Below are positions 30,195 through 58,554 of a DNA stretch of 64,000 nt, piece after piece; position 1 is the stretch's first letter, and every line of letters begins with the position of its first letter. A program made the translations under genes and the position numbers. Source of the stretch: a virus; the IMG/VR virus record IMGVR_UViG_3300031539_000007, positions 1 through 64,000 of that record; one strand, 5' to 3'. The notes under the pieces are model-generated. The model was given only the letters and a program-made list of their open reading frames with translations. It was not told where the DNA came from and searched no databases.

Positions 30195-30228
30195 TAGCAG
30201 CTCCTTTTCTAAAGGGTTGATTGTGTTT

Positions 30229-30297: not shown

Positions 30298-30320
30298 GAT
30301 TTGTGTGTGCGTAGAGCGGA

Positions 30321-40000: not shown

Positions 40001-40786
40001 ATGTTCAGCATAACGAACGAGAAGGAGGTATCAGCCGTAGGGCTGGTTCAGCCTAACACATTAGTTCTAGGGGACTGCTTGGAAGTCATGAAGTACATTC
40101 CAGACGGCTCTGTGGACTTGGTGTTGACCGATATACCCTACGGAACAACCGCGTGCAAGTGGGACTCCGTTATTCCGTTTGAACCGATGTGGGCAGCCGT
40201 CAAGCACGTATTGAAGCCGCGCGGGGTATTCGTAACTACTGCGAGTCAGCCGTTTACAAGCGCGCTGATTATGTCAAATATTAGGAACTATAAACATTCT
40301 TGGGTATGGAATAAGAAGCTAGCTGGCAATGCAATATTTGCGAAAAAGCAACCATTAAAAATACACGAAGATATTGTCGTATTTTCATTCGCCGGTTGTT
40401 TGTATTATCCGCAAATGAGGACTGGAAAATTAAGGAAAAAGAATGGGATAAAGAACAAGCTAGGAACATTTGGTGATTCAGAGATCACAGAAAACGATCA
40501 GTATTATCCTACTTCTATTTTACAGTTCTCTAATGCTGGATTACGGAGAGGAAAAGTGCATCTGTCTCAAAAGCCTGTCGCCCTCTATGAGTACCTTGTC
40601 CACACCTACACCAACGACGGCGACACAGTGCTTGATTTCACGATGGGGTCTGGCACAACTGGCGTCGCCTGTGTGAACACGAATCGTAAATTCATCGGCA
40701 TTGAACTTGATAGAGGATATTTCGACATCGCCGTTGATAGAATCAACGCCGCGTTAGCAACCCCCGCGCAAGGCTCGCTATTCTAA
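40001..40786 (+). CDS. DNA amino-methyltransferase (N6A/N4C, beta class)
   Basis: GDCLEVM, DIPY, HLSQKPVAL, LDFTMGSGTTG and FIGIELD motifs; ends QGSLF. Confidence 0.93.
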   Translation: MFSITNEKEVSAVGLVQPNTLVLGDCLEVMKYIPDGSVDLVLTDIPYGTTACKWDSVIPFEPMWAAVKHVLKPRGVFVTTASQPFTSALIMSNIRNYKHSWVWNKKLAGNAIFAKKQPLKIHEDIVVFSFAGCLYYPQMRTGKLRKKNGIKNKLGTFGDSEITENDQYYPTSILQFSNAGLRRGKVHLSQKPVALYEYLVHTYTNDGDTVLDFTMGSGTTGVACVNTNRKFIGIELDRGYFDIAVDRINAALATPAQGSLF

Positions 40787-42453
40787 CCCACGCGCCATCT
40801 AGCCCCTCTGGACGCATTGAATTGCCCCATCGCCTGTCCTGATCTGCCGTACTTCCCGCCGCTTATCACTATGGCTTGGGGCAGCACCGTTGATACCCGC
40901 ATAGGCCCACCAACATAAGCATAGCGCAGCGCTGTGGGATAGTCCTCTCCATCCTTGCCCGGTGTGTCGCGGTCGTAGCTACCATCGGGCATTCGCTTGC
41001 ACTTGAACTTCTTGGCTATCGCTGTATGCAATTCAGGGCACCTCTCGGTGTCTATGAACAGACTGCGCGTGTTTGAGTTATCTCTGAAAGCATCGCGCAG
41101 CACCCCAATTCCATAAGCCACGTTCGCCACCTCTTTCGGTATGGTTCTACAGTTCAGATCACGCGGCCAATCGCCGATCAGGTCTTGTGCCGCTTTCTCT
41201 GCCCAGAACACCGAGATGTGCAAGCCGAACTCGTCAATGATGCGTGCCTTCATTTCGTGTGCCGCTTGGATGAGCTTGCTCGGCGTGTTGTTGTTGTCGT
41301 CCCACTCTGCAATTACCCAGCGCAGACGCTTGCCGTTTTCGAGTACCCCAGGAGCCTGAGCTACTACCACGATTCTACCACGACCGCGCTGGTCTACCCC
41401 AGCAAAGCACGTCCAGTTGTTGATGTCTGCGCCCTCTGGTGGGAATGGCTGCTGACAACCCATGTCGTATTGTGGATAGACAAGTCCTTGTTGTTTTCCT
41501 GTAAGCAAGAGGTTCTGTAAGGCGAATGATTCGGCGTCGGTCGTTAAGAACTTGGAGCAGACATCTTGGTAGGGATAGTGCCCCTCAGCTTTCTCGCCCC
41601 TGCCGCCACATAGTTCTTCGTAGTTGCCTGTGTACGGGTTAGTCCAGAACTGTAACGGGCAGCCACCGCAGCCAATGGGGTACGCTCTACCGCACGGCTT
41701 CATCGTGTCGAAGATGTCGAACTCATAAACGGCGATGCCCTTCTCTTCGGCAGTATCGAGGAAGCTCTGCATCGTGCCGGTGCTGTGGTACTGGCTGGAT
41801 GCCATTAGTGTAGTGGCCTGATATTGGTCGCTGCTCATTGGCATCTGCATTGCGGTTGCCAGAATGAGCGTGTCAATATGGTCTAGCTCGTCTACTGTCA
41901 GCGCGTGAGGGTGTGGGCCAGATACAGAACGCTCGCTGCCTCCAGTGCGTATTTCTAGCTTCGAGCCGTTCGTGAGGACGCACTTTGTTACCATTGGCTC
42001 TGCCGCCAGCATATCCGCAAAGAACGGCAGCTTTATCAGTCCTTCGACGCCATCCTTTTCCTTGCTGCCAGCGAAGTAGGCATAGCCGTCGCGCGCCTGT
42101 CCTTCTGAGCCAGCGATGTTGACAATTGAATAGCCTGGCTTAAAGCGCATTGAGGCGAGGTCGAAGATTGAGAACAGGCGCGTCTTGCCAGCACCACGAT
42201 TGCCACGCGCGACAAGCACCCGCTCGCGCTCGAAGAAGGCGTCGGCGATAAACTCGAATGGCGAGCGATGGCCCGCCTTGGTTACGTGGCGCGCAATGTT
42301 AAAGCCGAGTACGTAATTTACCCATTGGTGGAATTCGTCATCAGTCGTCGGGCGCTGTGAGGACATTTTGGAGCGCCGCAACATCAAGGTCGCTTGTGCG
42401 TCCGACAAAATCTGGGCTAACATCTGTTGCGATTGCGTCGATGATTGTTCCAC
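40783..42453 (-). CDS. terL: Terminase large subunit
   Basis: Walker A GNRGAGKT, Walker B LTVDELD, nuclease AGVDQ and EDYPTALRYA; the start may instead be ATG 42366. Confidence 0.85.
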   Translation of the reverse strand: MEQSSTQSQQMLAQILSDAQATLMLRRSKMSSQRPTTDDEFHQWVNYVLGFNIARHVTKAGHRSPFEFIADAFFERERVLVARGNRGAGKTRLFSIFDLASMRFKPGYSIVNIAGSEGQARDGYAYFAGSKEKDGVEGLIKLPFFADMLAAEPMVTKCVLTNGSKLEIRTGGSERSVSGPHPHALTVDELDHIDTLILATAMQMPMSSDQYQATTLMASSQYHSTGTMQSFLDTAEEKGIAVYEFDIFDTMKPCGRAYPIGCGGCPLQFWTNPYTGNYEELCGGRGEKAEGHYPYQDVCSKFLTTDAESFALQNLLLTGKQQGLVYPQYDMGCQQPFPPEGADINNWTCFAGVDQRGRGRIVVVAQAPGVLENGKRLRWVIAEWDDNNNTPSKLIQAAHEMKARIIDEFGLHISVFWAEKAAQDLIGDWPRDLNCRTIPKEVANVAYGIGVLRDAFRDNSNTRSLFIDTERCPELHTAIAKKFKCKRMPDGSYDRDTPGKDGEDYPTALRYAYVGGPMRVSTVLPQAIVISGGKYGRSGQAMGQFNASRGARWRVG

Positions 42454-42928
42454 TATCTATCGCCCCCTGAACTGTTGAGATGAGTTGCTGTAATTGGTCA
42501 AAGCTCATCCCTTCTAAGTTGAATATCTGTGGCTCGTTAAGCACGTTGTTCTGCTGGACGTTCACGTTGACCTGCATTGGGGCAACTGCCTTTCTAGCAA
42601 AGTCGAGGATTTCCAGTGGGTCGTGCATTGTAAGCGGCATCCCAAGCTCTATGTTACGTTGCATCTTGTCTTCAAACAAGACCTGCGCGTAAGCGAGCTG
42701 TCGGCGCGTCGATGCAATCGGGACGTGCGCTACTGCCTTGTCTACGTCGCCGTTTATCTCTATCCCCGCCTCGTTCTGGGCGTTGAGGAGCGCCATCACG
42801 TCCATTGGGTTCATCTGGCATACGTCGGCAATGACACGCGCCTCTGGCGGGTAGACAATTCCACGGCGGATAATCATCTCCTGGCGCACACATTTCTCTT
42901 GTTCTGTCAGCGGTTTTCGCGGTCTCAT
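42341..42928 (-). CDS. Terminase small subunit (putative)
   Basis: Directly upstream of TerL; VNVNVQQNNV...LEGMSFDQL C-terminus; likely leaderless start at ATG 42928. Confidence 0.65.
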   Translation of the reverse strand: MRPRKPLTEQEKCVRQEMIIRRGIVYPPEARVIADVCQMNPMDVMALLNAQNEAGIEINGDVDKAVAHVPIASTRRQLAYAQVLFEDKMQRNIELGMPLTMHDPLEILDFARKAVAPMQVNVNVQQNNVLNEPQIFNLEGMSFDQLQQLISTVQGAIDSGTIIDAIATDVSPDFVGRTSDLDVAALQNVLTAPDD

Positions 42929-42935
42929 GGTTAAG

Positions 42936-42970
42936 AGTATACTCGTCTTGTAAACGTTGTGCCACCTTGA
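42936..42970 (-). promoter_or_regulatory. Putative late promoter for the terminase genes (leaderless)
   Basis: TCAAGGT-N22-TATACT-N7-ATG. Confidence 0.62.
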
Positions 42971-42994
42971 CACGCCTTGGAATAGTGGTACAAT
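42967..42994 (+). promoter_or_regulatory. Sigma70-type promoter of the rightward operon
   Basis: TTGACA-N16-TACAAT with an extended -10 TG. Confidence 0.8.
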
Positions 42995-43003
42995 CCGTAG
43001 TAG

Positions 43004-43321
43004 ATGGGAATCCGCAAAACACTAATTGACCAATACGACACCTCCGAAAACCGCCAGCAAGTCTACCAACGAGACGGCGGGCGCTGTGTTGTCTGCGGGG
43101 GGAACTTCCACGACATCCACGAGATTGTGTCCAGGTCACACTGGGCCTCCACCGAGCATGATATGGCACTGTGCTTCGCGTTGAAGAACCGGGTATGTAT
43201 CTGCCGGTATCATCACGGTGAATATCAGGGGATAGCTGAAAAGATTGGCGAGTTGCTACGCCTGCTACAGCGCAGGCACGGGTACGATTACTCAGAGAGA
43301 GAGTTTGCAAATTATCTATGA
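43004..43321 (+). CDS. HNH endonuclease
   Basis: RDGGRCVVCG, HDIHEI and NRVCICRYHH motifs. Confidence 0.8.
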   Translation: MGIRKTLIDQYDTSENRQQVYQRDGGRCVVCGGNFHDIHEIVSRSHWASTEHDMALCFALKNRVCICRYHHGEYQGIAEKIGELLRLLQRRHGYDYSEREFANYL

Positions 43322-43563
43322 GAACTATCACATATCGCAGAGAACAAAACAAGAAGCGCAAGCGCAGAGCCAGGCGCATAATCTCGCGCTGGTTTCACGG
43401 ACGCGATCTAGCCGACGACGAGCGATTCGTTGGTATCATGGCAGCCACGCCTTGCAGGTGCTCTTGCCCGTACTGTGGCAACGAGCGCAGGCACTTCGGG
43501 AAACGTACACGACAAGAGATTGTGGCAGATATAATTACTAATGAGCAACTAGAGGTTATATGA
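43318..43563 (+). CDS. Hypothetical basic protein (CSCPYCGN)
   Basis: ATGA overlap; phage-type CSCxxCGN motif. Confidence 0.65.
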   Translation: MRTITYRREQNKKRKRRARRIISRWFHGRDLADDERFVGIMAATPCRCSCPYCGNERRHFGKRTRQEIVADIITNEQLEVI

Positions 43564-43847
43564 GTGAAATCGACGAACTTAAAAATAGGGTGTCGCAAAT
43601 CGAGCGATTCCTTGGTAGTAGAAAGGGATACGTGTTCGCAAAGATTGCAGACATTGAAGTGAATGGCGGGAGCAGCGGTAATGTGCGCGTTGTACATAAT
43701 TGCCCCACGATGCCGGCGGGGACAAGGGTGCTTCGCCCAATTCATAAACAGTGGTTGATTGATAATGGCTATAGCGATTATGACGCACCGGCTAGAACAA
43801 TACTTGACATAGCGTATTGTCCGTATTGTGGACAGAAACTATTTTAA
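43560..43847 (+). CDS. Hypothetical protein (C-terminal CPYCG)
   Basis: ATGA overlap, GAGG RBS. Confidence 0.6.
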   Translation: MSEIDELKNRVSQIERFLGSRKGYVFAKIADIEVNGGSSGNVRVVHNCPTMPAGTRVLRPIHKQWLIDNGYSDYDAPARTILDIAYCPYCGQKLF

Positions 43848-43909
43848 GGAAATGAAGATAGAATACAAACTAACACTTATTACCAAACTCAAGGGAGATT
43901 AGAGGTAGA

Positions 43910-44215
43910 ATGAACGATCTTGGCATAATTAAATTACAAGTAGATTACTTCAAAGACCAAGATGGAACGGTGCGCTGCGCATCGCTTGAAACTGGTAAGA
44001 GCATGGTGATCTTTATGCGTAACAAGGAGGGCAAGATTGTCACCGCCACGCTTGGTATGCCAGTGATCCCTGTAGAGACATTGCTGGAAATCGCCAAGGC
44101 GTTCGATGCGCCGAGCAATGGGTTGCATACGTACAAGTGTTCCCGTTGCGGCTATGCTTACACTGGGGACAAGCAACTTGATTGTAGTTGCGGTTGCTAC
44201 ACCGAGAAAATCTAA
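43910..44215 (+). CDS. Hypothetical protein
   Basis: GAGG RBS; C-terminal Cys motifs. Confidence 0.6.
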   Translation: MNDLGIIKLQVDYFKDQDGTVRCASLETGKSMVIFMRNKEGKIVTATLGMPVIPVETLLEIAKAFDAPSNGLHTYKCSRCGYAYTGDKQLDCSCGCYTEKI

Positions 44216-44240
44216 GAGGTCTGCATGAAAGGAGTGGTAC

Positions 44241-45221
44241 TTGACTAACTATAACTGGGGCGATGTACTTCTGGAAGCGCGTGGGGTTGCCGCTGATGGG
44301 TGCGGGGGCTGGCGGCATCTATCAAGAATGCTAAGTATTCCGAGGACTACACTCCGCAGAGAACTGCAAAAGCTAGGCGTCAAAGAATACGATGATCTGC
44401 TGTACGACACGGAACCCGATGGCATTGAATCTCCAGAGAGCAGTTTTGTTAAGCAACGCATCACCACGTCGGTTGCCCGCAATCTAAAGGTGGTATACTT
44501 CGGCGACATCCACGCTCCGTTCCAAGACGACCGCGCCATCAGCGTGACCGCGCAGATTATAGCTGATTTCAGACCAGACGAAGTTGTCTGCGGGGGCGAC
44601 TCGGTAGACTTCTACGCAGTGTCGTCGTTCGACCGCGATCCTGAGCGCGTGCTCAAGTTGCAAGAGGAGTTAGATATAGCGTTCGGGTGCCATGAAACGC
44701 TAACGTCAGCAGCCAGAAGCGCACAGTGGTATATGCTTGATGCAAACCACGAGGAGCGGTGGGTGCGCTATCTGCATAGCCATCCAGAGATTTCCAGCTT
44801 GCGCGTGCTTGAATTGTATAATTTGTTGAGGTTTAACGAGCTTGGATGGAAGGTCGGCGGGGCCGAAAGACGATATTGTAATGGTTTGTTGGCGCTAATC
44901 CACGGGGCAAGGTACAGCAAACATGCAGGCTGGGCCATTAAAGCGGAAATGCACGACAGGTTCTTTGACCACCATGTTCTGCAATTGCACAACCACAAAG
45001 TTGGCAGCTACATAAGCCACGGGCCTTTGCGCCAAATGTCTGGCTATGAGGTTGGATGCTTGTGCTCGCTAGAACCAGAATGGCACCCTCACCCAAATTG
45101 GAACCAGGGGATAATGCTTGTAGAGATTATTGAGAATGTGCCATCATTTAATAATCTTATATTCCACGCTGACGGCAACACTGTGTGGTCTGTGTTCGGC
45201 GGGAAGGTGTACAAATCATGA
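44241..45221 (+). CDS. Calcineurin-like metallophosphoesterase with an N-terminal HTH
   Basis: GDIHAP, GGDSVD, ANHE, IHG, LHNH and WNQG motifs. Confidence 0.85.
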   Translation: MTNYNWGDVLLEARGVAADGCGGWRHLSRMLSIPRTTLRRELQKLGVKEYDDLLYDTEPDGIESPESSFVKQRITTSVARNLKVVYFGDIHAPFQDDRAISVTAQIIADFRPDEVVCGGDSVDFYAVSSFDRDPERVLKLQEELDIAFGCHETLTSAARSAQWYMLDANHEERWVRYLHSHPEISSLRVLELYNLLRFNELGWKVGGAERRYCNGLLALIHGARYSKHAGWAIKAEMHDRFFDHHVLQLHNHKVGSYISHGPLRQMSGYEVGCLCSLEPEWHPHPNWNQGIMLVEIIENVPSFNNLIFHADGNTVWSVFGGKVYKS

Positions 45222-45433
45222 GCATTCTGGTTTGTCATAACTGCAAACAACCCATCTCTGCATTCGCCAAAAGATGCAACTATTGCGATGAGGCGGTGCT
45301 GTATCCAGAGCCGCTGGCAAGCACGAGCGAAGATGTTCTCCCAACGACACACGAAGAGCAGCGCGTCGTATACGTCTATCCAGACGACGAGCGCGTTGTG
45401 CGTTTCGACGAGAACTGGGAGGAAGTAGTTTGA
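45218..45433 (+). CDS. Zinc-ribbon hypothetical protein
   Basis: CHNC...CNYC; ATGA overlap. Confidence 0.6.
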   Translation: MSILVCHNCKQPISAFAKRCNYCDEAVLYPEPLASTSEDVLPTTHEEQRVVYVYPDDERVVRFDENWEEVV

Positions 45434-45443
45434 GGTTTTCTCC

Positions 45444-45953: not shown

Positions 45954-46123
45954 TCACACCCTACTCATCTTTGAGTAGCGGCGTAGCTGATGGCGTTTTC
46001 GCTATCGAAATAGGCAGAGAGCAAATCGTATTCTCTTGCGAAGCGGCAAGAGCGTTCGGAGAATGGCTTGTTGAAAAGGGGAAGGAATGGCAGATATACT
46101 TGACGGAATCCTCGCCAAAGTAG
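45890..46123 (+). CDS. Hypothetical protein
   Basis: Fills the gap between resolvase and recA; start uncertain. Confidence 0.4.
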   Translation: MGRFWIMDDTRDTPVSNEFGIITPYSSLSSGVADGVFAIEIGREQIVFSCEAARAFGEWLVEKGKEWQIYLTESSPK

Positions 46124-47145
46124 AAAAGAAGTATGGAAGCGGGGTGCTTAACGGAAGAGCCAGAGATACGTTCTCAGGCGAAGCCAGACCTACCCCAATT
46201 TCTACGGGGAGTCTAAGGCTTGATTGGGCTATTGGTGGGGGAGAGGAATTTGGGGGTATCTATCGGCGCAGGATTACCACTGTGTATGGGTCAAAGAGCA
46301 CTGGAAAAACAACACTCGCTAATTCGGTAATCGCTAATGCGCAGCGCCAGGGGTGTAAAGCCATCCTTGTCGAACTTGAAGAGAAGTATGACAAGGTTTA
46401 CGCGGAGGCGTGTGGGGTTGACTTAGACGAGTTGATATTCTTGCACACTATATCCGACGATGACAAGATACAGGTTATCACGGGCGAAGAGGTACTGACA
46501 ATACTGCTACAGGTTGTAATGTCTAAGGCCGTAGACCTGGTTGTCATTGACAGCATATCGGGGCTAAGCCCCAAGCTCGAACTTAACGGGGAGATTGGGG
46601 AGTCATTCCCGGCGTTACAGGCACGGCTTGTAACGAAATTCATTCGCAAGATACCTCCGTATCTAGCCCGTAACAACGTAGCCCTGTTAATCAACAATCA
46701 GGTGCGCTCTAACTTTGGCGGGACATCGTTTGAGGCTCACTACACTATGCCAGGGGCATACGGGCTGAAGCACGGCACGGCGGTTTTAATCAAAGCGGCG
46801 CACGCCTACGTGAACAAGCAGTATAGGTTGAAGAGCGGGGATGAGTTTGTGGGAAGCAGGGCGCGGTTCTTCGTTGAAGAAAATCAAATCGCTAACCCTT
46901 ACCAGTCTGCCGACGTACCAATCATTAGCGGGAGCGGGTTCGATACGGCGATGGAAATTCTCTCGTTCGCTGGCGAGGTAGATTTCATCAGCAAGAAAGG
47001 GTCTTGGTATTATTACTTTGACGAGCACGGCGAAGAAGTAATGCTTGCGCAAGGCGAAACGGCGGCGGCGGAAGTGCTGCGTGAGAGCCCGGCGTTGCTA
47101 GAATCATTAAAAGGGCGCGTCGTAGAAAGGATGAGTGCAAAGTGA
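46087..47145 (+). CDS. recA: RecA-family recombinase
   Basis: ISTGSLRLDWAIG, GSKSTGKTT, LVVIDSI, LQARL and INNQVR motifs; KKGSWY. Confidence 0.95.
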   Translation: MADILDGILAKVEKKYGSGVLNGRARDTFSGEARPTPISTGSLRLDWAIGGGEEFGGIYRRRITTVYGSKSTGKTTLANSVIANAQRQGCKAILVELEEKYDKVYAEACGVDLDELIFLHTISDDDKIQVITGEEVLTILLQVVMSKAVDLVVIDSISGLSPKLELNGEIGESFPALQARLVTKFIRKIPPYLARNNVALLINNQVRSNFGGTSFEAHYTMPGAYGLKHGTAVLIKAAHAYVNKQYRLKSGDEFVGSRARFFVEENQIANPYQSADVPIISGSGFDTAMEILSFAGEVDFISKKGSWYYYFDEHGEEVMLAQGETAAAEVLRESPALLESLKGRVVERMSAK

Positions 47146-47360: not shown

Positions 47361-47362
47361 AA

Positions 47363-47802: not shown

Positions 47803-47891
47803 CACCGTGACGATCATTTTAGAAGAACACTTTGATGTAGCCGAAGACAATCCGGCACTGCGTTTATGTAACACGCCTTATTAGAACGCAA

Positions 47892-48710
47892 ATGGCAAAA
47901 TCTCCGAATTGGTCTCAGGAAGAGATTGACTTTCTAAGAGAGTTCTATCCCAATAACGGCATACGATGGTGCGCCGAAAGATTACCATTAAGGACAGAGG
48001 GGGCTGTGAACTGCGAGGCGTGCATACTTGGGATCAAGAGAAACGACGATAGAGGATTTACTGACTATTTCAAGAACATAGACACTGAAGATAAGGCATA
48101 CTGGCTCGGTTTTTTGTTCGCGGATGGGTGCGTAGGGGACATAAAAGTATCTTTGTCTCAATCAGAAAGATACGTTGTTGACGACTTCCAAAAATCAATA
48201 GGGTGCAATTACAAAGTGCGAACTGTATACGGGAAGGAACACGCATTTAGAGATGGGAAAATATATACTTCAAAAACTCATTACTGTGTTGAAATACCGA
48301 GCGTAGATATGGCTAACGATTTGAGACGCCACGGGTGTGTAAACAAAAAGAGCCTCGTATTAGAATACCCAGATCATCTAAACGAACATCTTAGACACCA
48401 TTTTGCCAGGGGGTATTTCGATGGGGACGGGTGCATTCATGGCGGCATGTTTAACGAACACATAGTCGTAGCTGGTACGCAGAATTTTATTGAGGCGATA
48501 GCGAAGTCTTGCGAAATATTGTCGAAATATTCAATTCACAAACAGGGCAACATACACACATGCCACATTTCGAGCGTGCAAGCGATGAACTTTATGGAGT
48601 GGATGTATAGCGGGGCAACAATATTTCTAAAAAGAAAAAAAGACAAATACGATGCTCTTGTTAGCAGTAGAGAAAACTCGAAGGAGGGGAAATGGTGCAG
48701 GCACTATTAA
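47892..48710 (+). CDS. LAGLIDADG homing endonuclease (two motifs, free-standing)
   Basis: AYWLGFLFADGCV and HFARGYFDGDGCI motifs; visibly AT-richer DNA. Confidence 0.9.
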   Translation: MAKSPNWSQEEIDFLREFYPNNGIRWCAERLPLRTEGAVNCEACILGIKRNDDRGFTDYFKNIDTEDKAYWLGFLFADGCVGDIKVSLSQSERYVVDDFQKSIGCNYKVRTVYGKEHAFRDGKIYTSKTHYCVEIPSVDMANDLRRHGCVNKKSLVLEYPDHLNEHLRHHFARGYFDGDGCIHGGMFNEHIVVAGTQNFIEAIAKSCEILSKYSIHKQGNIHTCHISSVQAMNFMEWMYSGATIFLKRKKDKYDALVSSRENSKEGKWCRHY

Positions 48711-51700
48711 ATGGCAGCTTTGAAAATGGATGGAATGACATACCAGCCGGTAGCACTATCAATCAGGAGCCGGATAGCTGGGTGCTTACTTGGAAGGGGG
48801 TAGGGCAGCCCCTTGATTCTAGTGGCGCATTCGCCGGTGACGAGCTGCCCGTTTTTGAAATCGCACAAACGATCCCAGAGTGCGTACACAAACACATGGA
48901 TCAGCTTCCACCAGACGAACAGCCTGGCGGGGAACACGCACTTATCTTGGATGGTGTGTACACATATAAAGTGTTCTCGTCGGTCAACCCATTTGGCATT
49001 ACCCTCACGCAACAAGTGCCAGCTAATGGCGTCGCGACACTTACTGTCCCTGTGCAAGTTCATCATCATGGCGATGGTAGTTACGGAGCGTGCGCGGTAA
49101 AAGTAGAGCTTGTCGGAGTTGAATCTGTGAATACCGGATGGCTAACATTTCATGGTGGAATCAATGAATTTGAGTGGGTGTCCCCAACCGTCAGCACAAA
49201 TACAAACGGAAGCGCCGGTGTAGTCGTAACGCTAGAAAGCCGCGCGCTTGGTGGAATAGACTTCTTCATAGACAACCTGGTACTAACTGAAGCTGGCGAG
49301 ACAGAGCCGCCACCAGTCGTTCCGCCAACAGATTATGACGGGCCAGTTATTACTACTGGCTCTAAAATCTTCACCGCACACACTATCGGAGAGGGCGGGA
49401 CAATCGAGATGCTACAAGAAGGCCGGGCCGTGGGCGTTACATCGCCTACGGTAAAGGTGTTCTTGTCAATGGGCGCGTCGGATGACATTCACGACGCAAG
49501 CCCCGACACAATCATTGTCGGGCGTGTTGATAAGGGCTGGAACGGGGATAGTATTGAAGGGGTAAACCTGTCTGGAGACTTACTGGTCGAAGCGCAACGC
49601 ATTATGAATTTGGCGATGCCAGTATGGGCGCAGTTCCCCAACGTGCGGTACTGGGAAATCCTCAACGAAGAAGACCCTGTGGGCGTTGACGGGCATCGGC
49701 GTATGGGTATCTTCCAGTCTCATTGTATCGACATAGCCGACGCCAACGGCTACAAGCTCGCCTTGTTCTCCTACAGTTTAGGTGTGCCAGAGTGGGAAGA
49801 GTGGGAAGCGATTGTGGCGACTGGTGTATTCGCTAAAGCGAAAACGGGCGGGCACGCGCTTGCGTTGCACGAATATTCCTACCCGATGGACACCGGGTTC
49901 GGTGAAGCACTGCCAGGACAACCGGCATATCCGAATCGCGGTATACTAGCGTGTCGTTACCGCTGGTTGTACGAAGACTTCCTCAAGCCGCTGAACCAGG
50001 TTGTACCGCTATTTATCACCGAGGCACAGATAGCCCTGCCGGACTTCCCGACACTTATCACACCAGAAGCATGGCTTGATGAACTCGCGTGGTACGACGA
50101 GCGCTTGGCAGAAGATTATTACGTGGTCGGTGCGCATTTATTTACCCTGTCGTCTGTACCAGGATGGACAAACTTCAACTGGGTAGAGTGGCGCTCACAT
50201 TTAGTTGGGTACGCACTCAGCGTCAAGGATAGACGTAACGCCCTAGCGCCAATCATCGAAGAACCTGTAGACCCGCCGCTCCCACCAGGAGAGTGTACAC
50301 CTAGATTCCCGTATGCTAGGACATACATACTCATCCCGCCTCGCCACGGCAGTGAATGGGTTGGCCCATTACTTGAAAAAATCTGGAACGAGAGGCGCTT
50401 TACTATAGGATGTTCGGCTGACGATGGGGGATGGGGGCCAGGAACGGAAAGCAGGACTGTGCTGGCACTGAATCCAGATGCGTGGGATGGGGACTTGCAA
50501 GCGTTCTTCGATGAGTGGTATCCTGGCGTGCTGTATTTCCCTATCCATGCCGATACGCCAGAAGAATTTGCTCAGGCTGTATACGACTATTACAATCCGC
50601 CCACAGGCTTCCCGCCAGTGTGGGATGACGACATTACCTACGACTTACCACGGCGCACAGATTGCAGCCTATTCCCAGATGGCACGTGGCCGCAGCGCAC
50701 GCTGATACAGATTGACGGGGTGACTGCCCATCATGTCGGGTCTGATGCCACTCCTCTCCAGGTAGCCACGGCATATCTTCAGAAGGATGGATGCAGGCCA
50801 TCTATCCCCTACACTATCTGGATTGAAAAGGATGGCACGATTCTCAAGTGTAACCCGCTCGAAGATGCCGGGCTGCACGACAACACCAGTGGGTACACGA
50901 CCGTCAACACACACCTGAGCGTCGGGCTTGCGGGCGCGTTACACATTGACTATCCTACCGAGGCGCAGTACAACGCGCTGGTAAAGGTTATCTTCTGGTG
51001 TGTAGACAATCCAGAGATGAACGTCATCAGAGAGCGGGTAAAGGGGCACATGGACTACATCAGTACACAGTGCCCTGGGTGGAAGGAGGGCAGCAATACC
51101 GGCGCGGATCGCTGGAAGTGCGAGTTGTACGGCAGGCTAGGATGGGACATTGATGGTTGCGAGGTCGCCCCGCCGCCGTCTGGTGGTAACACTCGCGGGG
51201 TTCACGCGCACGCATCCACATCGCCACGGCTAACAACAAGCCAGATTATCGACCTGGTAGCACCTATGAACCTATCACACTACAAAATTCTCGATGAGGG
51301 TAGCCCCGCGAATGTCGAGCTGGCACTGGCACTGATGGCGAACGACATCGAACCAGTTGTCAGGCTGTATCAGGCCGGGCAGTTCCCTGGAAGAAATACG
51401 CGCATCCCCTACATCGGTAACATGCTTGCTACTGGCGCGACGCTAATAGAGATTGGCAACGAGCCAAACCTGCCAGTCGAGTGGGTGGACGCATACAGGC
51501 CGATGGTGGATTGGCACAACACAGAGATAGTCAATGCCGTAGCGCAGAGTTGGTTGCTTGATGCGCGCCAAGTTATTTCTATGGGCGGCAGGCCAGGACT
51601 GTACGCGCTCGCCCCCACCGACAGAGGCGGGGTTAATCCGCAGTTCTCAGATGTAATGTGGTTCGAGGGGATTACTAACTGGCTACGGGCCAACGCATTG

Positions 51701-52129
51701 TCAGAACTGCGCGGCTGGCTTAATGATTGGATAGTATGGTTGCCGGTACACAGCGGGCGCTTCGACAAACCGCTCGACTTTAATCCGTTCCAAGCCACGT
51801 ACAGGGACAGCATGTGTATGCTAGGGTACAATATTCACCAGCAGATTCTTTCTGATAAGTTTGGTGTGAGTGACGTGCTCACTATTGGCACCGAGGGGGG
51901 CTGCTACTCACCAGAATCACTGGTAAGGATGCAGTTCTCCCCTATCTACAATGAAGCTGGTTGGGGCACGGCGGTAGTAGAGATGCACAACTTCCTGAAT
52001 GCCAGGGGCGACATCGCGGCGGTGTGCTCGTGGATACTTGGAGTGAGTGATGATCCCACATGGGACGAGGATGCCTGGATCAGGCGCGATGGTAGTTGGC
52101 GCAGTCCAATGACAGCAATGAGGAGCTAA
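48692..52129 (+). CDS. Multi-domain endolysin-like protein: CBM-like + GH-A + amidase_2 + GH-A
   Basis: WEILNEE / ALHEY / FITE (GH); TAHHVG...IPYTIWI...KGHMDYISTQCPG (Zn amidase); IEIGNEPNL / GTEGG (second GH); Pro-rich linkers. Confidence 0.8.
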   Translation: MVQALLNGSFENGWNDIPAGSTINQEPDSWVLTWKGVGQPLDSSGAFAGDELPVFEIAQTIPECVHKHMDQLPPDEQPGGEHALILDGVYTYKVFSSVNPFGITLTQQVPANGVATLTVPVQVHHHGDGSYGACAVKVELVGVESVNTGWLTFHGGINEFEWVSPTVSTNTNGSAGVVVTLESRALGGIDFFIDNLVLTEAGETEPPPVVPPTDYDGPVITTGSKIFTAHTIGEGGTIEMLQEGRAVGVTSPTVKVFLSMGASDDIHDASPDTIIVGRVDKGWNGDSIEGVNLSGDLLVEAQRIMNLAMPVWAQFPNVRYWEILNEEDPVGVDGHRRMGIFQSHCIDIADANGYKLALFSYSLGVPEWEEWEAIVATGVFAKAKTGGHALALHEYSYPMDTGFGEALPGQPAYPNRGILACRYRWLYEDFLKPLNQVVPLFITEAQIALPDFPTLITPEAWLDELAWYDERLAEDYYVVGAHLFTLSSVPGWTNFNWVEWRSHLVGYALSVKDRRNALAPIIEEPVDPPLPPGECTPRFPYARTYILIPPRHGSEWVGPLLEKIWNERRFTIGCSADDGGWGPGTESRTVLALNPDAWDGDLQAFFDEWYPGVLYFPIHADTPEEFAQAVYDYYNPPTGFPPVWDDDITYDLPRRTDCSLFPDGTWPQRTLIQIDGVTAHHVGSDATPLQVATAYLQKDGCRPSIPYTIWIEKDGTILKCNPLEDAGLHDNTSGYTTVNTHLSVGLAGALHIDYPTEAQYNALVKVIFWCVDNPEMNVIRERVKGHMDYISTQCPGWKEGSNTGADRWKCELYGRLGWDIDGCEVAPPPSGGNTRGVHAHASTSPRLTTSQIIDLVAPMNLSHYKILDEGSPANVELALALMANDIEPVVRLYQAGQFPGRNTRIPYIGNMLATGATLIEIGNEPNLPVEWVDAYRPMVDWHNTEIVNAVAQSWLLDARQVISMGGRPGLYALAPTDRGGVNPQFSDVMWFEGITNWLRANALSELRGWLNDWIVWLPVHSGRFDKPLDFNPFQATYRDSMCMLGYNIHQQILSDKFGVSDVLTIGTEGGCYSPESLVRMQFSPIYNEAGWGTAVVEMHNFLNARGDIAAVCSWILGVSDDPTWDEDAWIRRDGSWRSPMTAMRS

Positions 52130-52134
52130 ATAAT

Positions 52135-52377: not shown

Positions 52378-52840
52378 CCTCTGGCGCAAGCGCGTGGTTA
52401 TGGCGCGCGATTCTGGCAAGGAGTCATTTCGCTATGATGATATGGTTGAGTTGTGGGAGATTTCGAGGGCTGGAATCTCGGTTGCTTTGAAGCAACTTAG
52501 CGAGGAGTGCCCTGGCGGAGTTATCACTTCCAAGGACGGGCAGCGCACGGTGGTTGAGTTTGACTACGACTTACTCGTTGGAGATAATGACACGTTCGAC
52601 GACGACCTGCCGCTCAATATCCCTGACTGGATGGCGAGAGAAACGTATGATGCCGTAATGGAACGCGCTGATATTGACCTAGAGCAGTACGACATCTTTT
52701 TCTCTCATCGTGACGATGACTGGATGAGGCAATACCAAAGAGGCGGGGTTGTCATAAGCGTACACGAGAGCGGACAGAAAACGCGGTTGTACGAAGTGAC
52801 GTTTAGAGTTGATAATTGTGTCGTAATAGGGGGATTTTAA
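52364..52840 (+). CDS. Hypothetical protein with an N-terminal winged HTH
   Basis: YDDMVELWEISRAGISVALKQL. Confidence 0.55.
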   Translation: MLRSSLWRKRVVMARDSGKESFRYDDMVELWEISRAGISVALKQLSEECPGGVITSKDGQRTVVEFDYDLLVGDNDTFDDDLPLNIPDWMARETYDAVMERADIDLEQYDIFFSHRDDDWMRQYQRGGVVISVHESGQKTRLYEVTFRVDNCVVIGGF

Positions 52841-52842
52841 CG

Positions 52843-55053
52843 TTGGAAGTTGTAAAGCGTGACGGTCGGATTGTCCCGTTCGATGATAGCCGTATCTATC
52901 GGGCGATAGATAGATGCTTCGCTGGCCTTGGCTATGATGCCAAGGTAGGCCCACAAGAGCTAACGCGGCGCGCAGTGCTGGTCGTGTCTGGCAAATACGA
53001 GCGGCCTACTGTTGAGCAGATTCAGGACGTGGTAGAGAGTGTGCTGCTTGCCGCTGACGAGATCGAAGCGGCACGCGCCTACATCCGCTACAGATACGAG
53101 CACGAGAAGTCCAGGAGGGCAAGAGACGTGCCCAGTGGCGTCAGAGAGGCGTTTGCAGAGTCGGATGCGTACTTTGCTACCCCTATCCAGAAGTTTCAGT
53201 TCTACGACAAATACAGCCGCTTTGACTACTTCTTAGGTAGACGCGAAACGTGGGTGGAAACAGTGGATCGTGCGGTGGCTTTTCTTAGAAAGCTGTCCGA
53301 GAACAAGCTGCCAGAGAAAGACTACGCGCGCATCCGCGATGGCATCCTGAATATGAAGGTGATGCCGTCAATGAGGCTGCTGGCAATGGCTGGCCCTGCG
53401 GCAGAGAGGTCTGGTCTAACAATCTACAACTGTGCCTATCTACCAGTGGATAGCATTAGTTCATTCTATGAGGCTACCATACTGGCGATGAGTGGCTGTG
53501 GCGTTGGCTACTCTGTAGAGCGCCAGTACGTTGAGCAGTTACCCCGCGTGCAACGGCAAGGCGACGGGACTACATTTACAACGTTTGTAATACCAGACAC
53601 CGCCGAGGGCTGGGCTAACGCTATACAGTACGGATTAGAGACGTGGTTCAATGGGTGGGATGTGCGCTTCGACTACTCAGAGATACGCCCCGCCGGTGCG
53701 CCGCTGATGACTAAGGGCGGGCGTAGCTCTGGCCCAGCACCCCTGCGCAAACTGCTGACATTCGCTAGAGACAAAGTGCTCAGTAGGCAAGGTGGTTTCT
53801 TGCGTCCAATTGACGCTCACGACATTATGTGCGCCATTGGCGGGTCGGTAATTAGCGGAGGCATGCGTCGCACAGCTCTCCTTTCCCTGTTCGACTTCGA
53901 CGATGCTGAGATGAAGCACTGCAAAGATGGCGACTTCTGGCGCGACAACAGCCAGCGCTGGAACGCCAACAACTCGGCGGTCTGGCCCGATAGACCGCTA
54001 ACGCAATCAGAGGTCGCGCACCACCTGCTAGAGATGTTCGATAGCGGTAGAGGGGAACCTGGAATATTTAATCGCAGGGCGGCGCTAAATACTATCCCAG
54101 AACGTAGGAATAAAGAATATGTTTATGGAACAAATCCTTGTGGGGAGGTCTTGCTGCGCCCTAAAATGTTGTGCAACTTATCCTCTATCATTGCTCGTAG
54201 CAACGACAATCTAGTAACGCTGCTTGAAAAGGCAGAGCTGGCTACTATCATTGGCACTATTCAGTCAATGGCGACGAACTTCCCTGGGATGCCTGATGAG
54301 TGGCGCAAGAACTGCGAAGAAGAGCGCTTGCTGGGTGTAGACCTCAACGGCCAGTTGGACTCACCCGTGGCGATGCTGCCCGATGTACAAGCGCTACTCA
54401 AACAGCAAGTGCTCAGAATCAACGGGCGGTACGCGAAGCTGCTTGGTATCAATCGAGCGGCGGCCACAACATGCGTTAAGCCTTCTGGTAACTCGTCACT
54501 GCTGTTGGATTGTTCGTCGGGGTTGCACGCACGCTGGTCTAAATACTACGTGCGCAACATCAGGATTAGTGCGCTCTCGCCGTTGCTTGGAGTTATGCGC
54601 GATGCTGGTGTGCCGATGTCGCCAGAGAACGGGCAAGACCCTGATAGCTGCAATACGTGGGTGATCCACTTCCCGGTCAAATCCCCAGACAGAGCAATGA
54701 CGCGCAACGACAGGACTGCAATCCAGCAATGTAATTACTGGCTACAGAATAAGATACAGTGGACTGAGCAAAACCCGTCGGTCACTATCTCGTACAAGCC
54801 CGACGAAATCTTAGACATCATCAAGTGGGTATGGCAGAATCAAGACAACATCAACGGAATGACTTTCTTGCCTACGTTTGATGCGCTGTACGACCAGATG
54901 CCCTACGAGGAAATCACCGAGGCTGAATACAACGAGTTGGCTGCCGTGTTCCCGGAGATCGACTTCTCGAAAGTGTGGCGTTACGAGGACAAAGATTTAA
55001 CTTCTGCGGCACAAGAGCTTGCGTGTATGGCGGGTTCGTGCGAACTGGCTTGA
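52843..55053 (+). CDS. nrdJ: Class II (B12-dependent) ribonucleotide reductase with ATP cone
   Basis: VVKRDG ATP cone, PSMR, YNCAY, GTNPCGE and TCVKPSG motifs; C-terminal LACMAGSCEL; likely TTG start at 52843. Confidence 0.93.
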   Translation: MEVVKRDGRIVPFDDSRIYRAIDRCFAGLGYDAKVGPQELTRRAVLVVSGKYERPTVEQIQDVVESVLLAADEIEAARAYIRYRYEHEKSRRARDVPSGVREAFAESDAYFATPIQKFQFYDKYSRFDYFLGRRETWVETVDRAVAFLRKLSENKLPEKDYARIRDGILNMKVMPSMRLLAMAGPAAERSGLTIYNCAYLPVDSISSFYEATILAMSGCGVGYSVERQYVEQLPRVQRQGDGTTFTTFVIPDTAEGWANAIQYGLETWFNGWDVRFDYSEIRPAGAPLMTKGGRSSGPAPLRKLLTFARDKVLSRQGGFLRPIDAHDIMCAIGGSVISGGMRRTALLSLFDFDDAEMKHCKDGDFWRDNSQRWNANNSAVWPDRPLTQSEVAHHLLEMFDSGRGEPGIFNRRAALNTIPERRNKEYVYGTNPCGEVLLRPKMLCNLSSIIARSNDNLVTLLEKAELATIIGTIQSMATNFPGMPDEWRKNCEEERLLGVDLNGQLDSPVAMLPDVQALLKQQVLRINGRYAKLLGINRAAATTCVKPSGNSSLLLDCSSGLHARWSKYYVRNIRISALSPLLGVMRDAGVPMSPENGQDPDSCNTWVIHFPVKSPDRAMTRNDRTAIQQCNYWLQNKIQWTEQNPSVTISYKPDEILDIIKWVWQNQDNINGMTFLPTFDALYDQMPYEEITEAEYNELAAVFPEIDFSKVWRYEDKDLTSAAQELACMAGSCELA

Positions 55054-55054
55054 T

Positions 55055-55082
55055 TTGACTGTTACTGGCAATATGCTATACT
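55055..55082 (+). promoter_or_regulatory. Sigma70-type promoter
   Basis: TTGACT-N16-TATACT with an extended -10 TG. Confidence 0.75.
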
Positions 55083-55114
55083 AGGGGCATCAAATCAACT
55101 AAAAGGAGCAGTGT

Positions 55115-55234
55115 ATGTTTGTTTACAAGAACTGGGCGGATGGCCGCTATGCATGCCGTGGATGGTTTTTGTTTGGCTTAATCCCACTTGCTGTATGGAA
55201 AATCAACGCGGACGTGCCCACCAACGGCAATTGA
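55115..55234 (+). CDS. 39-aa small protein
   Basis: AAAGGAG RBS; MFVYKNWADGRYACRGWFLFGLIPLAVWKINADVPTNGN; not in the ORF track. Confidence 0.65.
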   Translation: MFVYKNWADGRYACRGWFLFGLIPLAVWKINADVPTNGN

Positions 55235-55254
55235 TAAATCATAAGGAGAGTGAT

Positions 55255-55728
55255 ATGACAAAGAGCGGTAATACTGTAGCTGCGGTGTGCCCGTCAAGCG
55301 GGGATTTCGTGGCGCGTGAGCCGAAGGTGTTCTTGGAAGTCAGGGACCTGTCCGAGAAGTGGACTCGGTATACGTTTAGCGAGCATGAAGAAATTGATCT
55401 GCTTGACTTTGCGGGGTTGACGGACTGTGTTACCCCGCTGGACGTTTATGCACCGGCGGTGTGCCCAATGACGGGCGAGGCTGTTACTGAAGTCCCGGTG
55501 CTGCGCATCAAGGCGAAGGGCGGAGGTGTGGAGTTTACATTCTACTTTTCAAGTGATGCGGAAACGGCGATTGCCGAAGAGTTCAATGTCAGCATACGCC
55601 AAGGGTATCGGTATCCGTGGAGAGGAACATACGGGTCTGTCGAACCCTGCGGGGTCACACTCACTATTCCAGCAGGCATGTCCATGTCCGTACCGCAATT
55701 CCTTTACCCACAACCCCCGCACACGTAG
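55255..55728 (+). CDS. Hypothetical protein with duplicated AVCPxxG modules
   Basis: TAAGGAG RBS, ATG 55255; AVCPSSGDFV and AVCPMTGEAV. Confidence 0.7.
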   Translation: MTKSGNTVAAVCPSSGDFVAREPKVFLEVRDLSEKWTRYTFSEHEEIDLLDFAGLTDCVTPLDVYAPAVCPMTGEAVTEVPVLRIKAKGGGVEFTFYFSSDAETAIAEEFNVSIRQGYRYPWRGTYGSVEPCGVTLTIPAGMSMSVPQFLYPQPPHT

Positions 55729-55743
55729 ATTGCGGCACAAAGC

Positions 55744-55778
55744 AAAAGCCCTGGTTTAATCGCCAGGGCTTTTTTGTT
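55744..55778. terminator. Bidirectional intrinsic terminator between convergent operons
   Basis: AAAAGCCCTGG-loop-CCAGGGCTTTTTT. Confidence 0.9.
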
Positions 55779-55786
55779 GCCACGAA

Positions 55787-57481
55787 TCAACTGAACAGCG
55801 AGCCTTGCACTACCTCTTCACCGTCGTCCGTGACAAACACCTCTGGTACAGCCCCTAGTCTCTGTGCTGCGTTCTTGTGCAGGTACTCGAACGAGATGTC
55901 GCATCCAATACCGTGACGACCCAGGGCACGGGCTACCTGGAGAGTAGTGCCGCTGCCTACGAACGGGTCGAAGACGATGGCTGGCACGACACAGAAATCT
56001 GTCAGCGGTTCGTCTTCCCACTGCTCTCCTTCAAAATACCACCGCGCGTCACAACTATTGCAGGGGATAAACGCGCCGCGTACCCCGCCGTGAATCCCGC
56101 TTGGTAGAAATGACATATCCCATTCGTGAGTATGATTGCTGATACAGTTACAAGTAGGACGCCAGCCGAGAGTTGAAAACTGGACGTGTTTAGTCACGCC
56201 GAGAGTAGACTGCTCAGTACCACCGTCAAGAGCGCCGCCACTGGCAAGGATGCGCCCTTGCGCCGCGCCAGGGTTGTGCTTGTTAGCAATGCGTGCCATC
56301 ACCCTCTCGAACGGCGCGCCACATTTTACACATACGCCATATTCGCTGCTCCCAGCCTTAACGCACGGTTCAACAAGCGTGCTAGGGAATACGGCGAAGT
56401 GGCTCCCCTTGTAGCCCTTCGCGTTGACGTGCAACGCCAGTGGCTCACCATTAGTATCCAGTAGCAATCCCATATTGTCGCGTAGCCCGTACAGATAGTC
56501 CAGGTGTTCTTCGGATTGTGCGATTGCGTAATCTACCGAGTCCTTCCATACATCCGACGTGCGCCGGTTGCGCCCAGGTTCAACATCTCTGCTTTTGTCG
56601 TTAGCACGGGCTTGGTTCATTGAGTGTGGGGTTTGGCCTGGAGCACCGTCGATATTCTTGTGCGTGCTGCTGTTACCGCGCTTGGCCCTGGCGATACTCC
56701 CCGCGCTCGTGGGCATCTCTACGGCCTTTGCGTCGTAGTAGTAATGCTCGGACTTGGAAAGCAGGAACAGGTACTCGTGCGCGGTTGTCATGCGGTCGGT
56801 GACACTTTCGGGCATACACGAGTCTTTTATCCACTGCGGATCGTTGCGTAGATACCAGCCATCAGCGCGAAGCGCGAGTGCTATAAGCCAAGGGATACCC
56901 ATAAGGTCTTTGTTTTTTATATCGTATTGCGATGGCGGACGCCCCTGCATATCGCGCGAGAAATTAGCACCCTTCCACCCCATGTCGCCATCTGTTTGCA
57001 TACGGGTGTACCCTTTGTGATTGTTATAACTGTCGCCAAAGTTCAAAAACACAGGCGCGTCCTGGCGCGATACTCGCCACACTTCTCTAAAGATAGCCAC
57101 AATATGCCCGACGAACATCTCTGGTGTTGGCTCTAGTCCTAGCTCGCCACGCCAAGCGCCGCATTTGAGACAGATGTTGCCACTGCTCGCAGTCTGCCCT
57201 TTACCAGCAGCGTCAGCGTCCTTCCACTTCGTTTGCTCTACCTGGCCTGGATGATGCGGTGGCAAGTCGTCGCCAAACACATGCTCGCAATCTGGATCGC
57301 CAGGAATAACGATCTCTGGCAGCCACTCGATTTGCTTGTAAGTCATACCGGGCCACACAGAGCCTTGTTCGCCTTTGTATTTTCTCTTCCCGTAATACGG
57401 CGGAGAGGTCACTACACAGTGTACGCTCTTATCCGCCAGTGGGATATGAATACCGTTAGAATTGATGAGCAGTTCCATCAC
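55787..57481 (-). CDS. DNA amino-methyltransferase (N4C/N6A, beta class) with Cys-rich insertions
   Basis: VVTSPPYYG, HEYLFLLSK, HFAVFP and FDPFVGSGTT motifs; ends QGSLFS. Confidence 0.93.
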   Translation of the reverse strand: MMELLINSNGIHIPLADKSVHCVVTSPPYYGKRKYKGEQGSVWPGMTYKQIEWLPEIVIPGDPDCEHVFGDDLPPHHPGQVEQTKWKDADAAGKGQTASSGNICLKCGAWRGELGLEPTPEMFVGHIVAIFREVWRVSRQDAPVFLNFGDSYNNHKGYTRMQTDGDMGWKGANFSRDMQGRPPSQYDIKNKDLMGIPWLIALALRADGWYLRNDPQWIKDSCMPESVTDRMTTAHEYLFLLSKSEHYYYDAKAVEMPTSAGSIARAKRGNSSTHKNIDGAPGQTPHSMNQARANDKSRDVEPGRNRRTSDVWKDSVDYAIAQSEEHLDYLYGLRDNMGLLLDTNGEPLALHVNAKGYKGSHFAVFPSTLVEPCVKAGSSEYGVCVKCGAPFERVMARIANKHNPGAAQGRILASGGALDGGTEQSTLGVTKHVQFSTLGWRPTCNCISNHTHEWDMSFLPSGIHGGVRGAFIPCNSCDARWYFEGEQWEDEPLTDFCVVPAIVFDPFVGSGTTLQVARALGRHGIGCDISFEYLHKNAAQRLGAVPEVFVTDDGEEVVQGSLFS

Positions 57482-58554
57482 TTAACGTACCGTGGGGACA
57501 GTGCATGCACGAAGGCGGAGTCGCTGCCCGTAATTATTACCGTGCTGAGAGCGCCCTTGATGTGCATCGTGATGTCACCACTGAAAGCACGTAGCGCCTC
57601 CCTCATATACTCCGCACACATTAGCAAGCATAGCTCGGCATCGCCCTCTGCCTGTACAGCTATATCGCCGCCGCCATCAGTGCCAGCAACGCTGACGACG
57701 ATGCTGCTGTTAGTGATAGCGAAGGTGATGGTGCCATCTCCCATCCCGTCAAACATAGAAGCGCGCCTGACTGCATCCAACAACGCCGACGAATCTACGG
57801 TAACTGTACAGCGACCGTCGGTGTCGAACATCCCAGTCTCTTCTACACTGGACTGAACACCGTCGCCGTTGACAAGCTGGGTAGAGAACAGGATTGCGCC
57901 AGTGTCAAATGTCATTCGCCCGTTGCCGCAGCCAACGGTAACAATATCAGTGCCAAGTATTTTCGACAGCTCGTTCGCAGAGCCAGGCGGAATCAGCGCC
58001 TCACAGACAGCCTCAGTGTCAGTTGTGTTCCTTGAGATGCGGTAGCCATCTAACCCCATGAACGCCAGCTTGCCATCAAGTGTGTACAACGCTACGCTAT
58101 TAAGCGTCGGGCGGCTTGCGTCATGGGACGCGAAAGGGGCGCAGTATTCAAGCGCCGCCTTTAGGACAGTGCCGTCAATCTCAAACGAGAAGTCGGCAGC
58201 CCCGGCAATCAGTGGGAACATATCAGCGGGCAGGCATTTGAATCTCACCTTCGTGTTACCGCTGACGAGCCTCAATACGTCATTGACCATCTCTAGCTGC
58301 ACCGTGTCGGTATTCAGCGAGGCTACCACATCCGCGAATAGCACCGGAACAACGGTAGCGAAGTCTTCGCCGCAATCAGCGTCCACGTACACCTCGACTG
58401 ACTTCTCGAAGTCGGTGGCGCACAGGCACATAATCCCATCAACAACTTTTAGCAGGATGTTCTGTGCGATAGGGATAGTCGTGCGTGCCGGGGCAATACG
58501 CTTGGCGATTGCTGTCCCACGCTTCAGTTCTTGGGTTGCTACCGTGATTTTCAT
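57478..58554 (-). CDS. dnaN: DNA polymerase III beta sliding clamp
   Basis: 358 aa; TTIPIAQNILL, ATDFE, FP, SRPTLNSV, DGYRI and LIP motifs. Confidence 0.9.
   Translation of the reverse strand: MKITVATQELKRGTAIAKRIAPARTTIPIAQNILLKVVDGIMCLCATDFEKSVEVYVDADCGEDFATVVPVLFADVVASLNTDTVQLEMVNDVLRLVSGNTKVRFKCLPADMFPLIAGAADFSFEIDGTVLKAALEYCAPFASHDASRPTLNSVALYTLDGKLAFMGLDGYRISRNTTDTEAVCEALIPPGSANELSKILGTDIVTVGCGNGRMTFDTGAILFSTQLVNGDGVQSSVEETGMFDTDGRCTVTVDSSALLDAVRRASMFDGMGDGTITFAITNSSIVVSVAGTDGGGDIAVQAEGDAELCLLMCAEYMREALRAFSGDITMHIKGALSTVIITGSDSAFVHALSPRYVK

Follow-up and report, generated by a model that had tools for sequence, protein, structure and literature searches.

Matching C-terminal QGSLF tails on two phage DNA methyltransferases are probable beta-clamp-binding motifs

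Why should two DNA methyltransferases (MTases) of one uncultured phage, encoded on opposite strands and very unlike apart from their PF01555 domain, end in the same pentapeptide, QGSLF? The question is raised by IMG/VR virus record IMGVR_UViG_3300031539_000007, a record of 113,043 bp with an estimated completeness of 82%, whose first 64 kb (64,000 nucleotides, hereafter the window) we analysed together with the ORFs of the whole record. The explanation that we favour, with a probability of about 65%, is that the QGSLF tails are beta-clamp-binding short linear motifs, which would tether the MTases to the sliding clamp and couple methylation of the phage DNA to its replication.

The first enzyme, MTase1 (40001–40786, plus strand), is a compact beta-class N6_N4 DNA methyltransferase of 261 amino acids (aa) that matches PF01555 with an E-value of 3.4e-28 and carries the motifs DIPY (residues 44–47; a variant of (D/S)PP(Y/F) in which Ile replaces the first Pro) and DFTMGSGTT. 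It ends in ..ALATPAQGSLF, so that the candidate clamp-binding motif (40769–40783, plus strand) forms its extreme C-terminus. The second, MTase2 (55787–57481, minus strand; PF01555, E 5.8e-32), is an N6_N4 DNA methyltransferase with long Cys-rich inserts, 564 aa long if started from a GTG and 563 aa if started from the adjacent ATG, in which SPPY (residues 26–29) and DPFVGSGTT (residues 505–513) are found. Its C-terminus reads ..DDGEEVVQGSLFS, with VVQGSLFS as the final residues before the stop codon; QGSLF (55793–55807), followed by Ser, lies in a predicted flexible tail of residues 542–564 (55790–55858, minus strand). The PF01555 scores of 99.5 bits (MTase1) and 111.9 bits (MTase2) compare with a curated cut-off of 26.7. 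The two 15-nucleotide (nt) stretches that encode QGSLF are identical at 14 of 15 positions and differ solely in the Leu codon (CTA/CTG), and the DNA similarity between the two tails stops at the edges of the motif. Given the peptide and the codon usage of the phage, an identity of 14/15 has a P of ~0.025, which is a weak hint of recent copying at most. The tail sequences, coordinates, lengths, opposite strands and nucleotide identity that the first-pass annotation of this DNA had reported are all reproduced exactly.

To judge how readily such a coincidence arises, we used the 216 greedy open reading frames (ORFs) called across the whole 113-kb record. A Q-x-x-[LM]-F tail is present in two of them, MTase1 and MTase2, and searches with PF01555, PF00145 and PF02086 found no further DNA methyltransferase in the record. 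Two random tails among 216 ORFs would land exactly on both MTases with a probability of ~1/23,220. The presence of QGSLF on both enzymes is not due to chance.

Natural beta-clamp motifs take the forms Q-phi-x-[L/M][F/L] and, as a hexamer, Q-phi-x-[L/M]-x-[F/L]; subsite II of the clamp takes the Gln and position 2, and subsite I the last two hydrophobic residues (PMC11139829). Both tails agree with the pentameric form at positions 1 (Gln), 4 (Leu) and 5 (Phe). With canonical clients (Dalrymple motif QL[S/D]LF) they share Gln at position 1, Leu-Phe at positions 4 and 5 and a flexible terminal location, as well as, in MTase2, acidic residues before the motif (DDGEEVV). The clients listed in PMC11139829 include Pol II (QLGLF), Pol IV (QLVLGL), Pol III alpha, delta, Hda and MutS/MutL, and no methyltransferase is among them; our full-text literature searches likewise turned up no bacterial or phage DNA methyltransferase reported to bind the beta clamp.

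The MTase2 family offers the richest comparison. We collected 119 metagenomic homologues of 33–50% identity, defined the tail as the last 15 residues and used shuffled tails and internal windows as controls. A peptide resembling a clamp motif is found in the tails of 64 of the 119 homologues, compared with 6.1 after shuffling of the tails and 1.3 predicted from internal windows. In the alignment, QGSLF of MTase2 occupies the same columns as the family consensus x-L-P-[LM]-F, beyond the last conserved helix and a segment without conservation. The motif follows the conserved Arg541 in 73 of 120 family sequences, at the end of a linker of 2–47 residues (median 19) and with 0–22 residues beyond it. 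Its variants include DLPLF (9/120), DLPMF (9), QLPLF, QLTLF, QRRLF, QLILPL and QMALPV, and many, such as DLPLF, DAPLF and DAGMF, have no Gln. In these alignments, the MTase2-family tail behaves as expected of a short linear motif at the end of a flexible tether. Weak agreement with such a tether comes from the AlphaFold model of MTase2, which is of mediocre overall quality (mean predicted local distance difference test, pLDDT, of 63): the last confident helix spans residues 531–541, the tail has a pLDDT of 41–58, and two short low-confidence strands are drawn in it. Flexibility is thus suggested for MTase2 by pLDDT and linker range, and for MTase1 by the position of its tail as an extension beyond the family core.

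Homologues of MTase1 with ~60–68% identity are abundant in metagenomes and phage contigs. The core of this family ends in ..(E/D)RI, and a minority of homologues is extended by 7–16 residues, the extensions ending in QGRLF, QETLF, QMTLPL, QMKLEF, QESLL, QLRLPM, EQITMF or KQLLF. Overall, 11 of 119 MTase1 homologues have tails that resemble a clamp motif, compared with 2.3 in shuffled tails. Hexamers of both methyltransferase families resemble those of Hda (QLSLPL) and Pol IV (QLVLGL).

To compare MTases with their genomic background, we examined 80 IMG/VR loci anchored on MTase2 relatives and 80 anchored on MTase1 relatives, defining a strict tail as Q-x-x-[LMI]-F within the final 10 residues and taking other ORFs of at least 80 aa for comparison. 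In the MTase2-anchored loci, the 70 distinct relatives include 12 with a strict tail, versus 9 among 1352 other ORFs (Fisher test, 1.6e-11), and under a broad definition the counts are 25/70 and 30/1352 (2e-20); canonical QLSLF, QLKLF and QLALF are among the tails of these relatives. In the MTase1-anchored loci, the strict counts are 4/54 versus 8/849 (P 0.004) and the broad counts 9/54 versus 34/849 (P 6e-4). Furthermore, DNA methyltransferases (PF00145, PF01555, PF02086) account for 10 of the 17 strict tails on other ORFs: three of the nine from MTase2-anchored loci, one each of PF00145 (C5), PF01555 and PF02086 (Dam-like), and seven of the eight from MTase1-anchored loci, all PF01555. Outside methyltransferases the strict tail is rare, with about 7 in 2,200 ORFs. 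Both anchored samples therefore show an enrichment over background on phage methyltransferases, which had been put forward for dnaN-positive phages as a check on the clamp idea. Judging from these sequences, methyltransferases of three or more unrelated folds or families have gained the tail.

Some phages carry the same pentapeptide on several of their methyltransferases, as does the window with its two copies of QGSLF: locus L062 has QRTLF twice and locus L208 QLTLF three times. In L062 the carriers are a Dam-like enzyme (PF02086; 16253–17410, plus strand) and an N6_N4 homologue of MTase2, and the DNA of their tails differs at several codons. L208 contains three adjacent N6_N4 methyltransferase genes (2173–2823, 2855–3478 and 3498–4220, plus strand), each ending in QLTLF. 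Two carriers of other kinds were also seen. A phage integrase with an FtsK-gamma domain (L029:6529–7716, plus strand) ends in RQGSLFDGE, with the same pentapeptide as in the window, and a sigma-70 region 4 protein (L061:14444–15067, plus strand) ends in WQGTLF and recalls the clamp-dependent Mu activator MuC. Two cultured phages that encode dnaN were inspected as well, with mixed results. Paracoccus phage Psul1 yielded no ORF with a tail over the 23.6 kb that were inspected. In Sinorhizobium phage NV1.1.1 (L169, OP484858.1), an HNH endonuclease (29616–30500) ends in ..QPSLFAYAA and a 91-aa ORF right after dnaN (13727–14002) ends in ..QLAMALKAGAQ.

As a taxonomic control we used 80 loci from cellular genomes. 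Bacterial copies often have a tail, such as QQKLF and QTNLF in Paenibacillus, DAGLF in Mesorhizobium and ELPLF in Coriobacteriia. A tail-like end is found in at least 19 of 67 bacterial copies versus one of nine complete archaeal (Thermoplasmata) copies, a contrast of small numbers that fits a bacterial clamp as the partner. Loci from archaeal metagenome-assembled genomes that contain MTase2-family genes, Thermoplasmata and other, are mostly tail-less (L091, L095, L096, L102, L104, L108, L109, L134). The archaeal MTase2 homologues do not have a PCNA-interacting peptide (PIP) box either, and a PIP-like tail (Q-x-x-[LIM]-x-x-[FY][FY]) is likewise absent from the proteins of the window.

Several known systems resemble the proposed one in part. 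In Caulobacter crescentus, replacement of 849-DLPLF-853 of MutS by five alanines abolished the MutS foci at the replisome (PMC8034640). This is likewise a near-C-terminal pentapeptide on a DNA-transaction enzyme, and the identical DLPLF, among the most frequent variants of the family, is found in the 9/120 MTase2-family members mentioned above, where the window has QGSLF; its carrier is, however, a mismatch-repair protein and not a methyltransferase, and the window has Gln-Gly-Ser for Asp-Leu-Pro. The late activator MuC of phage Mu uses the host beta clamp via a clamp-binding motif (bioRxiv 10.1101/2025.01.04.631326; PMC12867686) and is, like the MTases, a phage-encoded non-polymerase protein, but a transcription factor and not a DNA-modifying enzyme. 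M.EcoGIX and M.BceJIII are plasmid-encoded, mobile-element N6-adenine methyltransferases whose activity is tied to replication, and their authors speculate that the sliding clamp or a similar host protein links them to Pol I (PMC7736820). They differ from the window enzymes in being single-strand-specific and Pol I-associated, with which they co-purify, and no clamp-binding motif was proposed for them. Eukaryotic DNMT1 and PCNA provide a functional analogy, a maintenance methyltransferase that the replication clamp brings to new DNA for its prompt methylation, although clamp (PCNA), motif (PIP, Q-x-x-L-x-x-F-F) and enzyme family are all different.

A third candidate clamp client is a DUF932-like protein (59972–61108, minus strand; PF06067 with E 1.4e-4, below the cut-off; phrog_1362 with E 2e-16), whose gene belongs to the minus-strand block of dnaN and lies two genes upstream of it. 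It ends in ..EQLEMALV, and QLEMAL (59978–59995) fits the hexamer Q-phi-x-[L/M]-x-[F/L]. Its closest homologue (67% identical) ends in QMEMAF, and more distant homologues have no motif. The first-pass annotation had listed this tail as a weaker candidate; it stands as a candidate, and its agreement with the canonical hexamer is better than had been thought.

Which clamp would such tails bind? The phage encodes one of its own, a DnaN of 358 aa (57478–58554, minus strand) that matches PF00712 and PF02767 over cut-off. Its AlphaFold model (pLDDT 94.8; predicted template modelling score, pTM, 0.91), which Foldseek aligns to the clamps of C. difficile and E. coli with template modelling (TM) scores of 0.92–0.93, is that of a genuine three-domain clamp. 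The TGA stop codon of dnaN overlaps the GTG/ATG start of MTase2 (..AAGTGATGG..), which makes the translational coupling of MTase2 to dnaN that had been suggested earlier plausible. In sequence the phage DnaN is isolated: one relative (P0243) is 42% identical and all others at most 32%, and an IMG/VR scan with P0243 found no relative. Its peptide-binding pocket keeps the equivalents of E. coli R152, L155, G174, R176, Y323 and P363, with Ile for L177 and, as is common in clamps, Tyr for H175 (R148, L151, G170, Y171, R172, I173, Y316 and P354 in phage numbering). Against E. coli it shows the changes T172L, P242V, R246G, V247M, V360A, M362S, N320C, M364R and R365Y, of which M362, N320, P242, M364 and R365 correspond to S353 (unique among 79 homologues), C313, V233, R355 and Y356 of the phage protein. 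The divergence of the clamp C-terminus, noticed in the first annotation, is thus visible in the pocket map at M364 and R365, and an altered specificity is possible.

Among 50 phage records with MTase2 relatives, one has a PF00712 clamp; the other 49 have no dnaN and many of them have tails. We accordingly rejected a phage-encoded clamp as a general companion of the tails. Since 49 of the 50 related records lack dnaN, there is no need for the phage's own clamp as the preferred partner, and tails of this kind would generally pair with the host clamp. Searches for DNA polymerases of the A, B and C families came up empty in the record, which is ~82% complete and whose missing part could hold one. 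The phage clamp must then presumably accept the motifs of the host polymerase and work with it, as has been proposed for the Thermus Lalka phages (PMC11437467), which likewise have a clamp and a replicative helicase without a recognisable DNA polymerase, and for which, in contrast to the window, no link between methyltransferases and tails is described.

The favoured explanation can be put as a mechanism. QGSLF, as a variant of Q-phi-x-L-F on a flexible tail, would dock the methyltransferase in the hydrophobic cleft of a DnaN clamp that stays behind on newly copied DNA, generally the clamp of the host, although that of the phage may be used as well. The enzyme would thereby be concentrated on nascent, unmethylated phage DNA, so that modification could take place during synthesis. 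We infer the physical binding, the choice of clamp, when methylation takes place at the fork and what the phage gains, be it protection from restriction or methylation-dependent phage functions. Because relatives in many phages bear similar clamp tags, methylation probably accompanies the copying of the phage DNA. The earlier suggestion that the MTases ride the clamp gains from the family-wide motif, its enrichment, its presence in several methyltransferase families and its variants of known motifs, while the accompanying preference for the phage's own clamp is not sustained.

Several observations weigh against clamp binding. Position 2 of both tails is Gly and not the canonical aliphatic residue; in E. 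coli clamp peptides, a Leu-to-Gly exchange at this position weakens binding and does not abolish it, and an LF moiety alone is able to bind subsite I (PMC11139829). The tail is facultative, since about half of the MTase2 relatives and most MTase1 relatives do without it, and the homologues are related by descent, so that counts of them are counts of non-independent events. A permutation test of tail concordance within genomes, applied to 10-kb flanks in the MTase2-anchored sample, was not significant; one locus (L062) stood against 0.07 exact matches under the null, which is anecdotal, and L208 surfaced later. Finally, the C5 methyltransferase (22187–23659) of the dnaN-positive phage NV1.1.1 has no tail.

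The tails might instead be selected short linear motifs with another role, such as a C-terminal degron for a host protease, a binding site for some other protein of phage or host, or a latch within the enzyme itself, which we regard as unlikely. Hydrophobic C-terminal peptides can serve as degrons, and a degron would make sense as a means of keeping methyltransferase levels low or timed. Roles of this kind could also draw on the two low-confidence strands in the MTase2 tail model, on the many variants without Gln (DLPLF, DAPLF, DAGMF) and on the similar tails of the integrase, the sigma-70 region 4 protein and the HNH nuclease. However, the variants match known classes of clamp motifs, namely Q-x-x-L-F, the hexamers QLILPL, QMTLPL and QMKLEF, and also the MutS motif DLPLF itself. 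A linker that spans 2–47 residues speaks against a fixed latch, and the remaining carriers are all DNA-transaction proteins, as expected of clamp clients, with MuC as a known clamp-dependent phage factor.

Somewhat less probable still is an orthogonal clamp–client pair in which the tails are adapted to the diverged clamp of the phage itself, with the host clamp unused. In such a set, a phage DnaN with remodelled gate and subsite II would prefer the QGSLF tails, perhaps also QLEMAL of the DUF932-like protein, which we equally doubt. The idea is attractive in that the scaffold of the pocket is kept while gate and subsite II residues are unusual (S353, C313, V233, R355, Y356), that subsite II holds motif positions 1 and 2, the second of which is the odd Gly, and that MTase2 is coupled to dnaN and shares an identical pentapeptide with MTase1. 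If true, phage modification enzymes would ride phage-specific clamps without competing against host replication and repair proteins. Yet many tailed relatives are found in the phage records, all but one of 50, that have no PF00712 clamp, and tails of the QG-x-L-F type are present in other phages and in bacteria, the QG-type tails found there being QGSLF (the integrase of L029), QGTLF, QGALF, QGRLF and QGVLL. Both observations speak against the tuning of QGSLF to the phage's own clamp that the first-pass annotation had envisaged, and a clamp that presumably has to accept host polymerase motifs fits such a pair poorly. That the shared tail is a functionless historical accident, left for example when a short DNA segment at the 3' end of one gene was copied into the other, is very improbable, since copying would explain the 14/15 identity (P ~0.025) but not the family-wide enrichment, the similarity ends at the motif, and related motifs stand at the same position in hundreds of diverged homologues.

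A megablast search of 50,697 phage records with the 18.5-kb region as query gave no match, and relatives of the phage's portal protein are just ~30% identical. Besides the beta clamp, the record encodes a DnaB-like helicase, RecA (46087–47145) and a class II ribonucleotide reductase with ATP-cone (52816–55053); an example location for its replication-gene set is L006:3306–4745 (plus strand). Between the DUF932-like gene and dnaN lies a phosphoesterase gene (58765–59358, minus strand; phrog_547, E 1.3e-41, without a Pfam match). A G+C-rich hairpin (gccctgg..ccagggc) followed by a T-run (55745–55780), located between the convergent ORF 55111–55728 (plus strand) and MTase2 (minus strand), looks like an intrinsic terminator, possibly a bidirectional one. 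At the other methyltransferase, a 556-aa ORF (40783–42453, minus strand) without a match in Pfam or PHROG is convergent with MTase1, and the stop codons of the two share 4 nt. Further along, a LAGLIDADG-like ORF (47892–48710, plus strand) overlaps by 19 nt the next ORF (48692–52129, plus strand), whose product of 1145 aa has an internal N-acetylmuramoyl-L-alanine amidase domain and may be a virion-associated lysin.

In animals, the binding of DNMT1 to PCNA ties maintenance methylation to replication, and we found no published bacterial or viral counterpart. If the tails described here bind DnaN, many phages would couple the modification of their DNA to the replication fork through a universal clamp tag, which would explain how phage genomes that replicate faster than a diffusing enzyme could follow are protected from restriction. 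The beta-clamp interactome would gain a large new class of clients, and a simple sequence rule would become available for spotting replication-coupled methyltransferases in metagenomes.

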